From Eledone cirrhosa (taxonomy: Eukaryota): DNA of 64,000 nucleotides. The stretch is taken from contig OZ024742.1 in assembly GCA_964016885.1 (NCBI GenBank), positions 83,204,001 through 83,268,000 on the forward strand, read 5' to 3'. The translations under genes and the position numbers were made by a program. The notes below the pieces were generated by a model. The model saw nothing but the letters and a program-made list of their open reading frames with translations, did no database searches and had not been told where the DNA came from. Positions 17,985 through 59,641 of this stretch are shown piece after piece (positions within the stretch are counted from its first letter, which is position 1; each line of letters starts with the position of its first letter).

Positions 17985-18176
17985 GGGTGTGGTAAAATCC
18001 CAGGTGGACCATAACCCACCAGAGTACTCGATACTTGGGTTAGTAGAGTAGGTAATATGAAAAGGTTCAGGAACCCGACGGCTGAGTTCCGGCCGTTTCG
18101 ACAGCTAGATCCGAACTGTTAGAATCTAGATGTCGAAACGGCCGGAGCTCAGCCGTCGGGGTCCTGAATCTTTTTA
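17985..18176. mobile_element. Hairpin-plus-tail non-autonomous element (~115 bp palindrome + ~75 bp tail) between (TA)n tracts
   Basis: Palindrome 18059-18175 (CCCGACGGCTGAGTTCCGGCCGTTTCGACA / TGTCGAAACGGCCGGAGCTCAGCCGTCGGG). Related copies at 8422, 23925 and 29965. Confidence 0.85.
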
Positions 18177-18289
18177 TATATATATATATATATATATATA
18201 TATATATATATATATATATATATATATGTGTGTGTGTGTGTGTGTGTGTGTTAATTAGTCTAATTATTATGACGCATTATAAGAAAGAT

Positions 18290-19070
18290 ATGTAATAAAA
18301 GACTGATAAGTTGTAAAATTCCGGTACAATGCTGTTCAAAATTACAATAGGGTATTGATGAGAAATATAAGAAATCAAGGTAATGTTTTACTCAGTGTAT
18401 TATATCAACATGATATTTCAGGGCCTTTAACCTCTATTTGAATGTGGAGCATAAACAGTTAAAAATGAAAAGAATGATTAATGTGTTCATCTTTAAATGA
18501 CCTACGTGTCTTAAATACGCATATGTGAAATTGTTACAGTAGGCCATCTATTCCGTACATTTCCTATGTATCATTTATCTATGTTTGTTTCTGGTTGTTG
18601 ATAATAACATCTTTGATTCTCAAATTGGTCACATTCCCTTCCGTCGCCTCTACGGTGACATCCATATCTTGGCTGCGGCATCTGTCAAGTTCTTTTTGTT
18701 TTGTTTTTCAACAGAAAAATCTCTCGTCCTCGTGTGCTCTTTGATGCGTATGTGCAGCATCCGGACGGTACTCCCGATGTATAATGGGCTATATTTTTTA
18801 CATATGACTTTGTAGACCATATACGTTCTTATGCACACTTCTGTGTTGTTGGTAGAACATATCGTTGTATGTAGGTCGGTGATTGTGGAGCTGTCTCATG
18901 AATGATGTTTCCGTGTGCGCCAGTTGCATATTCAGGCCGTCCCCACAGATGGTTTGTCTGATGGCAGCTGTCATCTTTTCATTGAAATGTAGCAGCTTTA
19001 GGTAGGATATGTTATCTCTACTCTTCTCACCAGGCACGTAAATCCCTAAGCAGCAATAGTTAAACAAAAA
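18290..19070 (-). pseudogene. Decayed Penelope-like GIY-YIG endonuclease region
   Basis: VYKVICKKYSPLYIGSTVRMLHIRIKEH fits the VY..C..C..YIG.T.R.L..R..EH motif. Confidence 0.75.
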
Positions 19071-19089
19071 AGAAGGGCATGCGCCCCTA

Positions 19090-55820: not shown

Positions 55821-58800
55821 CACTTAACTCCAAACTACACCACTGAAACAACAACACACAGATACAGCTGAAAAATAATAAATCTACAGCTTTTAACGGC
55901 AAATGCTAAATAGATTATTTGCCGGAGATCACCAGTCAGACTGTCGTCAATTCAATATGAAAGGCCTAATCTCCGTTATAACACCCCGACAAATGATCAT
56001 GTTGAGAGAAACTGGAGATCTGAATGGGAAACAAATGATGATATCAACAAATCAGCGTGTGGCTAAATGAAGTGGAGTATCACTACTGCCAGTATATCCA
56101 TCAATAGTAATACAAAATAGATGATGGAATACTGAGAACAGCTCTACAGAAAATGTCAAAGGTCATGACTGGTTAAGTAGGACAGCGCATGTGAATTAGA
56201 ATATGGTGACAATTGGAAATATATTAAATATAATTGGAATATTTCACTATAAATTTACTATAGAAAATAGTCCAATATTAGGGCATATGAATCCGCATAA
56301 TAGAAAAAATAGTCATTAGCTTGCGTGTGAATCAAACTACGCACGCCGATGACCATTTCTCGCTTATGGGGCTTCATATACCCTAATATTGGACACTTTT
56401 TGATACTAAATTTACAGTGAAAGCCTCTAATTCCCTTTTCATCATTTTCATTCGTCACCGTCCGAAAATACTGAATAAAAAGGATATATATATATATATT
56501 CATTTTATTATAGAAATGACGTCTACGCGGCTAGAACATTTTCATTCGTAAGAAATCATTCAGAAAATAAGAAACTTTTTGTCAGTTTCAGTTTTCATAA
56601 TTTCTTTGGAATGGGTGTTGGCGGCACTGATTAAAGCGGGAAGGGGTTGATAATGTGGGATGGATAGATAGAGAAGTATGCGGCGCTTCAACATGGTAAA
56701 ATTAGTAACCGGCATAGGAAAGATTTTAGGCTTTTAAAATGAGTTAGATATAGAATAATATTGATATACACTAGATTCAGAAGGAGTATTCAATTGAATG
56801 TTTAAATAATTTAGATAAATAGGCCAGTATATATAACGTTTACTATGGTGTAAATGAGATTATTCCATACAGATCTCTATTTATTCTTGATATCATAAAA
56901 AAGGTCAACCCCATATATCTGTAATTCACAACTTAATAATCTTATGCAATGCTGTTGGCTACTCATTGAGCAGTCTGATTTAATAGGAATATTTAAGGAC
57001 GTTCAATTTACACTTGGCCATTAGCACTAACTTAACGATAGCTAAAATCTTTGACATAACAAATTATTAAAACATAGACAAACACTATCCTTCCAGAAAA
57101 ACAAATAAGAATATCGCAGCAGGGACAGTTTGCATTGTTTAGTATGAAAATAATCAGAAACAGGTGTTAAAAATGGGACTTTTATGCTTTATTACAGAAT
57201 GACAATAAATCACGGCGAAACTTGAAATACTTCACAGACGTTTGCAGTGCGTCCACATTTGCAACAAAAATAGAATAGGTAATGTGCATATATTCAAGCG
57301 GGCTTAATTAGGAAGTGTAGTTATGTTTAGAATAATGTTAGAGAATTGTTGAAGAGAATTTATTATTTAAGTTTAGCGAAGAAATTATAAATTCGGCATG
57401 CAGATATTAGCGTTTGAGAAAAATAAACGAAGTTATTATATCGAAGCCATTAACATATTTATAGACATAATATAAGAAATTAATTTATCACATACCGTTT
57501 ATAGAATGAAAATATATATAATAGTTTGGCATGCACTATGACGAATTCAAATGGGGTGTATATATCCTGTATTTGTTAGTGTGTGCTAACGACTAGGAGA
57601 ATTAAATATGATTATCATGTAATTGTTATCATACTTCACACATTATTATTGTAGAGATTTTAGCGGTGGTTCATTATGATTTAGTTTACGATAAACAGCG
57701 GCAACATATATCAAATTATTATTGGTATTCTATAACTATTCGTTAAATTTGTACAAATAGAGAAAACATAATAAGATTAGATTGTCATTTTATTATTTTA
57801 CGAGAGAATTTGCAAGATTCTTCAACAGTTTATGCTATAGATTGAATGTATTTCACTCGATAAATGTTACATTAGGATGTGTTAATTATTGAAACACATT
57901 GATTTAAATTAATGTATAAATATATTTAGAAGAAAATGAAAGGAGACAAATGGAAAGATGAATAAATGAAAGGAATTTCGCTATATCTAGGATGACTTAT
58001 TTAATTAAATATCTTAAGGTGGCATTTATAATGAACGAACGTTCTCTGAAATTCTTATAAACACGGTATCATATAAAGCAAAGTAAAATGAGTATATTTT
58101 AATGAGAATAAAGATAAATAAACTTTAATTGGTGTCGAAGGTGACTGTAACAGTAGGTCTTTCAGGAATGACTTACACGATTAACGTGTTTTTTACAGAA
58201 ACGTGTATATTTAAAGTAACTTTTATGATATCGGTGTAGAAAAGGTGTGACAAGAATAGCCTCGTTGTTTTTAGGGGTCCGAAATGTTTTATTCCACCCA
58301 ACTCCAACTAGAATACATTGGTCATCCCGGGGTTATACCAAAAGTCACTTACCCAAGATTTCATGCATATGGAACCGTACTTAGGCCTTACTTTTGTGAA
58401 GCGAGTTTTCTAAGCAATCAGACATGTTAAGGTGACTCACATTGTGGTTTATGCAATGGTGTACACTAATTTGTTATGAAAAATTACTCTCCTTGGGAAT
58501 GCGACATGGTATTTTCCCGATTTACGTAGAAAAAATTTTCAGACCGTTTATTACTTCCTATTTTGAGTGGAATCGGGTTAAATTAGGATGTGTTTAAGCA
58601 TTGTTATAAATAGGATTTAAAATTTATAAACTTAAAATAAGTTTATATGCCGAAATGATATTATATGATATGATAAGATTAGAGGGCAAATTCAAGGCAG
58701 GTGAACTTGTTTTCTTTTCATTCATATTTGGTCGTAATTATTCCGGTTCTTTGCACTTTAAGTACACTACTAACGACGTCAATATAAATGTTACGTCTCT

Positions 58801-58956
58801 CCCAGTCGAGAAATAGATTTACAACCAATTAGTGTGGTCTAATCTACATTTTCTTGCTTTCTTTCCTCTTCTCTCTCTCTCTCTCTTTCTCTCTCTCACT
58901 TTCTCTCTCTCTCTTTCTCTCTCACTCTCTCTCTCTCTCTCGCTATATATATATAT

Positions 58957-59641
58957 ATAGGATACTAGTCTCGCACGTTCACCTTGTAGAATATTGTAGT
59001 TAATTAGTTAATTCCAGGAGAGTGTGTGTGAAAGTGAGTGATATATATGTATATCTATCTATCTATCTATCTATCTAGCTCTCACTCTCTCTCCCTCTAT
59101 ATATATATATATATATATATATATATATAAATATATAATGGTAGCTAAGATGCTTCCATAGGCGGTATGCCGGTTGAGCACTCTATGCTCCTACGGAGCA
59201 GAGTATTATAGAATGGAAAACGAAAAATCAGTGATGCATCGGAACTCAATTTATTGTGTGTGACAATTGTTTCCCCGGCGAACAGCTCGAGGTGCGATCA
59301 TTGTGTGGATCTGTCTGACTCAAGTCTCGCAGGTTCTTCGGACACGTCTAATGATCCGAAATCAAAAGACGTATCCGAGGAACCTGCGAGACGAGAGTCT
59401 GGTAGATCCACACATGGATCGCACCTCGAGCTGTTCGCCGGGGAAACAATTGTCACACACAATAAATTGAGTTCCGATGCATCACTGATCTTTCGTTTTC
59501 CATTATATATATATATATATATATATATACATACATACATACATACATACATACATACATATCACTCACTTTCACACACACTTTCTCCTGGAATTAGCTA
59601 CAATATTCTACAAGGGGAACGTGCGAAACTAGTATCCTATT
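58957..59641. mobile_element. Nested palindromic elements: outer ~85 bp inverted arms, inner ~295 bp palindrome with tail
   Basis: Outer arms 58957-59045 and 59559-59641. Inner palindrome 59212-59504. Microsatellites between the layers. Confidence 0.9.

Follow-up and report, generated by a model that had tools for sequence, protein, structure and literature searches.

The window analysed here, a 64,000-nucleotide stretch of Eledone cirrhosa contig OZ024742.1, encodes a 5'-truncated Penelope-like element (PLE; 35117..37843, plus strand) with RT, a CX4CxxC linker and GIY-YIG, and one in-frame stop near 35719. It contains a hammerhead (37557), its segment 35117-35295 is an inverted 5' copy that mirrors 37622-37800, and a tail is present on one side only. 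This layout is, at full scale, the anatomy of three hairpins identified at 18060-18174 (arm identity 88.7%), 22403-22598 (85.9%) and 59213-59503 (90.0%), referred to below as the 18, 22 and 59 kb hairpins. An earlier note described these hairpins as perfect; they do exist, but are near-perfect only, with arm identities of ~86-91%. The GAAA..GUC blocks that it placed in the arms, which correspond to the 3' half of a hammerhead, are present at 18135-18157, 22576-22587 and 59443-59454, with mirror copies at 18077-18099, 22414-22425 and 59262-59273, respectively. The window contains 10 matches to the loose motif GAAAYNNNNGTC, where 3.5 would be expected, and 0 of 100 shuffles reach that count of 10.

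Several intact hammerheads are present in the window as well. One on the plus strand (24544..24621) combines the canonical core, CUGAUGA, with a domain II of 59 nt, and shows that a long domain II is natural in this window. The hammerhead fold at 60017..60136 (plus strand) has a single mismatch in the core, and its domain II measures 97 nt. In an intermediate case on the minus strand (25070..25412), the CUGAUGA hammerhead of the tailed arm is complete (core 25255-25249) and the inverted arm is truncated in domain II. No hammerhead family appeared among the Rfam matches listed (150 of 208), which were mostly microsatellite-driven miRNA models. The family motifs had no match in metagenome contigs and none in viral contigs; a generic mirrored-motif pattern hit two viral loci, both rejected as short chance hairpins in GC-rich DNA.

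The 18 kb hairpin begins with a one-sided tail, a 3' extension without a mirror copy, that ends in (TA)n (17982..18059, minus strand) and is common to the related copies at 24, 8.4 and 30 kb. The tailed arm (18060..18099, minus strand) consists of GAAAC, stem III, GUC and the 3' strand of stem I. The tip (18100..18134), where the two arms are joined, is a hammerhead domain II that is shortened and shows a U-G asymmetry, and the inverted arm (18135..18174, plus strand) comprises the hammerhead 3' half plus 17 nt and ends in (TA)n. Stem III is a true stem of 3-4 bp that closes a loop of 9 nt. Three arms were tested for a CNGANGA core over the 110 nt upstream of GAAA, and none has one. The proposal that the CUGANGA half had been swapped for a mirror image thus holds for this family, although not for the 22 and 59 kb hairpins, which keep a complete CCGANGA fold.

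As the earlier note stated, the 18 kb family has four copies in the window (8421-8515, 17985-18175, 23923-24098 and 29963-30070). The second (23923..24098, minus strand) has the same tip with other flanks and has lost ~17 nt from the inverted arm. The third (8421..8515, plus strand) retains the 3' half and tail without a mirror arm, and its truncated end abuts (TA)n. The fourth (29963..30070, plus strand), of subfamily B, consists of an inverted arm, a tip remnant and a tail; the hammerhead part of its tailed arm is deleted, and it matches loose ends in the reads before 18132. The recurrence of the tip was likewise borne out, in that the 18 and 24 kb copies have nearly identical tips; they also have in common one letter specific to an arm (18087 and the corresponding position at 24 kb) and a minor tail allele (18050). 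Both copies show the same U-G asymmetry, as does the long-loop main form of the reads.

The reads contain the 18 kb family in great abundance (13,720 contigs), with a well-defined end near 18000 that is followed by (TA)n. Contigs that exit the 18 kb stretch at 18117 number 2531 (X4) and 2728 (X5); their unmatched ends have a median length of 70 letters, so the main form is not closed by a mirror. This main form has a longer-loop domain II and runs on upstream without a mirror arm; in the 30 letters listed past the exit point, its contigs extend, unmirrored, to where the stem II 5' strand begins, and no parental CUGANGA appears in those letters. Several loci whose flanks are independent carry the palindromic form with the short tip. 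The outer end of the inverted arm is fixed at 18174, leading into (TA)n, in 245 contigs (X1) and 212 contigs (X2), ~75 nt short of the tail end. Depth in X1 is low at the tip, 35,944 against 391,183 and 1,157,034 on the arms, and the window's tip letter at 18123 accounts for at most 1,792 of 13,190. We do not read tip depth as a frequency, because contigs tend to break at hairpins, hairpin DNA is lost in PCR, and no spanning piece was recovered even for the copy in the window.

The 22 kb hairpin includes a one-sided tail with an approximate outer end (22345..22402, minus strand) and a tailed arm (22403..22495, minus strand) in which GGU, CCGACGA (22492-22486), a 60 nt domain II and GAAAC-GCAC-GUC make up a complete predicted fold. 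This was equalled in 1 of 3000 shuffles, and in 0 of 5000 when scored with the undamaged stem I of the other arm; the tailed arm has damage in stem I and in the palindrome of stem III, both of which are intact in the inverted arm. The inverted arm (22514..22598, plus strand) is truncated inside the core, keeping only G8-A9, and ends in (TA)n. A strict hammerhead scan misses this core because stem III of the tailed arm is damaged, whereas a per-arm test finds it. CUGAUCA adjoining GAAA in the 22 kb arm was considered as a decayed core and rejected, as it forms neither stem I nor stem II.

At 59 kb, a one-sided tail (59140..59206, minus strand) is followed by a tailed arm (59213..59352, minus strand) with GUGU, CCGAAGA (59341-59335), a 61 nt domain II, GAAAC-AAUU-GUC and ACAC. 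None of 3000 shuffles equalled its complete hammerhead fold. The inverted arm (59366..59503, plus strand) has GUAU and a core, CCGAGGA (59375-59381), with a damaged stem I, and its fold was equalled in 45 of 3000 shuffles. The base of stem II at 59 kb is not the usual G10.1-C11.1.

In both hairpins the layout is that of a type I hammerhead with the core ~60 nt upstream of GAAA, and the 5' cores (CCGACGA, CCGAAGA, CCGAGGA) differ from CUGANGA by one change, U4C. GAAA, NUH and stems I-III are predicted to form around the core, with a stem I of 3-4 bp, a closed domain II, and a stem III of A-U and C-G pairs with a palindromic insert. Judged by sequence, the tailed arms carry a variant fold and are not canonical members of the type I hammerhead class. 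The tips sit at the core or 5' of it, not at loop II as had been proposed. The idea that the families are unrelated also fails for this pair, which nhmmer links at E ~1e-8, with domain II alone scoring above all 2000 shuffles. Between the two hairpins, 4 of 19 predicted domain II pairs are changed on both sides (two lineages, three rows), and stem I and the stem III palindrome differ with pairing preserved. The two are distant relatives, with compensatory changes in their stems. Conservation between the 22 and 59 kb families covers both core halves rather than only the 3' one.

The inner arm ends across the window form a series, lying downstream of the hammerhead in the 35 kb inverted copy, inside domain II at 25 kb and in the 18 kb family, inside the core at 22 kb, and upstream of the core at 59, 29 and 12/15 kb. 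The core is missing on both arms in one of seven such families, or two of eight if 10621-11429 is counted.

PLE insertions are described as having an inverted, 5'-truncated copy at the 5' end, a tail at one end and (TA)n targets (PMC8557442), and their inverted junctions carry palindromes for which self-priming has been proposed (PMC3846280). The 18, 22 and 59 kb hairpins resemble insertions with an inverted 5'-truncated pLTR (PMC3846280; PMC8557442) in the head-to-head joining of an inverted 5'-truncated copy, the tail at one end only, the (TA)n or AT-rich target and the junction palindrome; (TA)n flanks both sides at 18 and 59 kb and one side at 22 and 24 kb. The insertions found here are only 200-370 nt long, lack an ORF and have tails of 50-85 nt, whereas published tails measure 30-40 bp. 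The 18 kb family departs from the insertions described there in that its junction is the hammerhead's own stem II.

Metazoan PLE hammerheads of the minimal type I form occur in opposite-strand pairs 100-700 bp apart (PMC4209133). The hairpins share with them the type I layout, the short stem I, the opposite-strand pairing and, at 22 and 59 kb, the palindromic stem III insert (GCGC, AAUU). Compared with that account, which describes helices of 7-8 bp, the 22 and 59 kb folds differ in having C at core position 4 and a domain II of ~60 nt, and the 18 kb family differs in its true stem III with a 9 nt loop. A natural viroid hammerhead with the same U4C change is reported to be less active in vitro yet active enough in vivo (cited in PMC3088659); here the change lies in a predicted fold with a long domain II, within retroelement stumps. 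The non-LTR retrozymes (10.64898/2026.07.22.740005) are also non-coding, hammerhead-bearing and proposed to derive from PLEs, but they are head-to-tail tandems with complete hammerheads, whereas the hairpins are single head-to-head pairs, and no direct head-to-tail tandem was found at the 18, 22 or 59 kb loci. In the literature on hairpin-mediated junctions and on this host group, we found nothing closer than the PLE and hammerhead papers cited.

In the in vitro system of PAc (Poseidon of Anolis), both strands are extended, there are two RT start sites, and hammerhead cleavage is dispensable; a template that is cut at +20, slightly 5' of the +26 cleavage site, remains functional (PMC11167929). 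The hairpins are similar in the two putative RT start sites downstream of the hammerhead, the AT-rich target and the presumed uncleaved template; they differ in that PAc is an autonomous element. The earlier suggestion that the remaining half acts as an RT-recognition signal is compatible with these in vitro data.

We conclude that the hairpins are quite probably stump-sized insertions of PLE 3' ends, in which a tailed copy meets a shorter, inverted one head-to-head, with the CCGANGA fold kept at 22 and 59 kb and the core lost in the 18 kb family through joining at its own stem II. The anatomy, the cores, the covariation, and the abundance and non-mirrored upstream form of the 18 kb family are observed; the route that follows is inferred. 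A PLE protein supplied in trans would nick (TA)n on both strands, and two cDNAs would be primed on uncleaved RNA, one at a distal start that yields the tail and one at a proximal start. Both would stop early, often in the structured domain II of 55-100 nt, and then be joined. If one cDNA ran past stem II, its end would pair with the stem II 3' strand as copied in the other cDNA, and fill-in would place a mirror where the core had been. Its position between the stem II hairpin and the RT start sites, not a role as substrate, would explain the survival of the 3' half. The fixed end of the 18 kb inverted arm, short of the tail end, is what two start sites would predict. The short-tip palindromic subfamily was probably copied later as a palindrome, as judged from the two window copies. 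Against the PLE-insertion reading, none of the 18, 22 and 59 kb families aligns to the one PLE of the window (35-38 kb), and the tails exceed the lengths in print.

The earlier note held that fold-back at stem II during reverse transcription had erased the enzyme strand. The stem II junction of the 18 kb family fits this, but the 22 and 59 kb hairpins keep the enzyme strand. Simple snap-back, in which a nascent strand folds at stem II and copies itself and the mirror arm is trimmed later, is the strongest competitor, although we regard it as unlikely. Self-priming is in print (PMC3846280), the 18 kb tip retains the natural stem II asymmetry, and domain II hairpins are predicted to be stable as DNA (-4.7 to -6.3 kcal/mol in five of seven stretches). 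However, snap-back would copy the tail as well, whereas the mirror arm ends at its fixed point, ~75 nt short of the tail end, and the junctions at 22, 25 and 59 kb contain non-palindromic spacers. Two-cDNA joining is not distinguishable here from snap-back with later trimming.

The earlier note also allowed for trans cleavage by a parental element. As a rival reading, this makes the half hammerhead a substrate strand under selection, cut by a parental RNA that supplies CUGANGA, the two forming a two-piece ribozyme. That 18 kb subfamilies A and B both retain GAAAC, stem III, GUC and the 3' strand of stem I would suit such a role, as would the abundance of the non-mirrored relative and the 8.4 kb copy that lacks a mirror arm. 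Nevertheless, it seems very improbable. Two of the three hairpins retain their own core, and at 22 and 59 kb the whole palindrome is predicted to lock the GUC cleavage site. In the palindromic RNA, GAA and the cleavage site have a modelled unpaired probability below 0.01, and freeing them would cost 43-62 kcal/mol against a gain of ~28 at best (perfect enzyme strand, 18 kb element). CpG-type changes occur in the reads at the core-adjacent positions 18079, 18095, 18100 and 18134, among the 40 of 154 variant rows listed, and GAAAC and GUC are both mutated in the 8.4 kb copy. Cleavage, moreover, was unnecessary for PLE insertion in vitro (PMC11167929). Least credible of all are MITE-type DNA transposons targeting TA with incidental hammerhead-like words: the hairpins are short, palindromic, multi-copy and next to TA repeats, but their inner ends are unequal, their 50-85 nt one-sided tails leave no symmetric terminal inverted repeats at both ends, a complete hammerhead fold shows covariation, and the layout is that of the window's PLE.

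A more far-reaching version of the PLE-insertion reading is tentative, and we would sooner doubt than accept it. A PLE-derived family might anneal two cDNAs at its own stem II, killing the ribozyme, and the dead palindrome might then retrotranspose as a hairpin RNA subfamily, while another, separate lineage might have a functional CCGANGA hammerhead, with a domain II of 60 nt, that is maintained by selection and escapes standard searches.

The hairpins are a variant of a known PLE structure, not a new kind of system, and the loss of the 18 kb core is likely a by-product of PLE insertion rather than parasitism of another ribozyme. The U4C hammerhead with a long domain and the stem II junction are modest additions; PLE hammerhead variants at position 4 or with long stems may already be described in print. 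The origin of the head-to-head inverted ends of PLEs is treated as an open question in PMC8557442 and PMC3846280. The 18 kb family has copies in the thousands, a fixed outer end on either side and a natural hairpin at its junction, which makes two-cDNA joining versus snap-back testable by junction counts. The combination of CCGANGA with a long domain II suggests that hammerhead censuses based on canonical descriptors overlook such families. If transcribed, the hairpins would be ready-made double-stranded RNA.

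The three hairpins at 18060-18174, 22403-22598 and 59213-59503 (the 18, 22 and 59 kb hairpins) that the earlier note described are present, with arm identities of 88.7%, 85.9% and 90.0%, and their GAAA..GUC blocks lie where it placed them to within one base. The window contains 10 instances of the loose motif GAAAYNNNNGTC (3.5 expected), a count reached by 0 of 100 shuffles. In each hairpin, just one arm extends outward by 50-85 nt (the tailed arm, as opposed to its inverted mirror), and (TA)n borders one end or both. This is the layout of published Penelope-like element (PLE) insertions, in which the 5' end is an inverted, 5'-truncated copy, one end carries a tail and microsatellites are the targets (PMC8557442, excerpt). 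Palindromes at a PLE junction have been interpreted as self-priming (PMC3846280, excerpt), and opposite-strand hammerhead pairs 100-700 bp apart have been noted (PMC4209133, excerpt).

The PLE at 35-38 kb has the same layout at full scale: an inverted copy (35117-35295), a truncated ORF with reverse transcriptase and GIY-YIG features (35296-37314) and a hammerhead at 37557. The ORF matches Pfam RVT_1 below the cut-off, some members of its atlas neighbours (at 0.93-0.94) have RVT_1 and GIY-YIG, and its CX4CxxC linker is of the kind described for Neptune. Within the window, no match of the 18, 22 and 59 kb families to this PLE was found. An older relative of the PLE, with its own hammerhead at 21685, lies on the minus strand at 21635-22173.

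The inner arm ends of the hammerhead-bearing head-to-head structures form a series, from 3' of the ribozyme (35 kb), through domain II, which is stem II and its loop between the 5' core and GAAA (25 kb inverted arm, 18 kb family), and the core (22 kb), to 5' of the core (59, 29 and 12/15 kb). The core is absent from both arms in one of seven families, or two of eight with 10621-11429 included. This last is an 800 nt palindrome with GAAAC-CG-GUA and a hairpin before it, in which neither a core nor a stem I is clear; a decayed relative occurs at 62256-62325. The large inverted pair at 12252-15558 contains internal tandem repeats and a complete CUGAAGA hammerhead per arm (12356 minus, 15456 plus). 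At the 25 kb palindrome junction, a new 14 bp hairpin (25303-25335) separates the complete arm from the truncated one.

The animal DNA of the window is AT-rich and contains numerous repeats of (TA)n and related types, as well as broken LINEs. The short repeat at 22187-22325 is a putative octopus SINE. At 22434-23900, 30176-34479 and 46139-49547 lie disrupted ORFs of non-LTR retrotransposons, belonging to at least three kinds; one such region is flanked by the 22 kb hairpin and the 24 kb copy of the 18 kb family. Further palindromes, with no recognisable hammerhead, were identified at 24116-24234, 7731-7845 and 56242-56422; the first abuts the 24 kb copy, and its relative 600 nt downstream (24833-25003) is non-palindromic.

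The 22 and 59 kb hairpins had been read as half hammerheads, which they are not, as a 5' core and closed domain II are present upstream of GAAA. The 22 kb tailed arm, read on the minus strand, has in order GGU, CCGACGA, a 60 nt domain predicted to form a closed irregular hairpin with G10.1-C11.1, and GAAAC..GUC. Of 3000 shuffles, 1 produced a core of equal quality; with stem I scored on the undamaged arm, 0 of 5000 did. The inverted arm ends within the core and retains G8-A9 alone. Both 59 kb arms have a core (CCGAAGA and CCGAGGA), with 61 nt between it and the downstream GAAA; 0 of 3000 shuffles were as good as the tailed arm, with its 4 bp stem I, and 45 of 3000 as good as the other. Window-wide scans returned four complete folds with one core mismatch allowed (0-1 in 12 shuffles) and three under strict settings (0 in 12).

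U4C, the change in the 22 and 59 kb cores, is a known natural variant with activity that is lowered in vitro and sufficient for a viroid (PMC3088659, excerpt). Long domains II are natural in the window (59 nt at 24544, 97 nt at 60017). A tailed palindrome at 29289-29700 has a complete minimal hammerhead on both arms with the core CAGAYGA, and its relative at 10332 also has A at position 4; thus, this position varies (U, C, A) among window families. Among repeats at 62739-63412, a CUGAUGA...GAAA motif (63175-63215) encloses a domain II of 31 nt.

Nor are the 22 and 59 kb hairpins unrelated, as had been supposed: nhmmer gives E ~1e-8, a value inflated by the palindrome, and domain II alone scores above 2000 of 2000 shuffles. 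The core halves are identical at every conserved position, and the stems differ (stem I GGU/ACC vs GUGU/ACAC; stem III insert GCGC vs AAUU), with 4 of 19 predicted pairs altered on both sides. The same core with changed but still paired stems points to selection on the whole cis hammerhead fold in the parents of these hairpins, as judged from two lineages.

Four of six listed runs were compared with 17980-18178 at 80% likeness; contig sets X1 and X2 are one sample, possibly the source of the window. Given that 13,720 and 12,967 contigs and 16,065 and 16,827 reads matched, the 18 kb family is very abundant, although depth does not equal copy number. Matches break off at 18117 in 2531 and 2728 reads (sets X4 and X5), which continue with a median of 70 unmatched letters, and in 135 and 120 contigs. 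The first 30 letters beyond form a longer loop and run into the beginning of the stem II 5' strand; they have the U-G asymmetry that is also seen at the 18 and 24 kb tips (arm junctions). Mirror-closed copies would match the arms; thus, the main form of the family is not palindromic at 18117. This form is the predicted parent of the 18 kb palindrome, and its 30 letters stop short of the core position. A second subfamily differs in stem II and matches the 30 kb copy (3853 and 3804 reads before 18132).

The inverted arm has a fixed outer end at 18174, in (TA)n, as 245 and 212 contigs show, and it falls short of the tail end (near 18000) by about 75 nt. The family does have four copies in the window (the others at 23923-24098, 8421-8515 and 29963-30070), and the tip reported as common to two of them is nearly the same in both. 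Among the longest of >27,000 pieces, 5 of 8 (X1) and 4 of 8 (X2) span the tip and carry 17-25 differences relative to the window; short-tip palindromes thus exist at other loci. Flanks differ between the 18 and 24 kb copies, which share a tip, a minor tail allele and an arm-specific letter (18087, where 94% of X1 depth has the other letter). This combination favours, on thin sequence evidence, descent from an already palindromic master.

In vitro, both strands of AT-rich DNA are nicked and extended by a PLE protein, which starts at two internal sites bracketing the tail and accepts uncleaved RNA as template; a template truncated immediately 5' of the cleavage site is still functional (PMC11167929, excerpt). 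We infer that two cDNAs, one per start site, would terminate early and then be joined head to head. The end of a cDNA past stem II could pair with the stem II copy of the other, and fill-in would place a mirror where the core had been, with the 3' half of the hammerhead retained by position. Such joining would yield both the tip at stem II and the one-sided tail. Plain snap-back would produce a palindrome with its tip at stem II by fold-back alone, but the one-sided tail then requires an extra trimming step. That the half hammerhead is a substrate cleaved in trans, as the earlier note proposed, is highly improbable, given predicted folding energies of -89 to -251 kcal/mol for whole hairpins, a predicted unpaired probability below 0.01 for GAA and the cleavage site, a cost of 43-62 kcal/mol for freeing these and the stem I and II strands against ~28 that perfect helices would regain (18 kb element), and CpG-type changes at core-adjacent sites in reads.

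The literature searched yielded neither a junction at stem II nor a PLE hammerhead with a CCGANGA core and a long domain II. A review presents a dimer model (PMC6765202, excerpt), and heavy A-to-I editing is described for palindromic repeats and a lizard Penelope element (PMC5625713, excerpt). The hairpins are neither MITEs nor tandem retrozymes as defined in the excerpted text of 10.64898/2026.07.22.740005. They have the structural features of the known PLE inverted-pLTR insertion, with homology to a coding PLE compared within the window, and by analogy would work in the same way.
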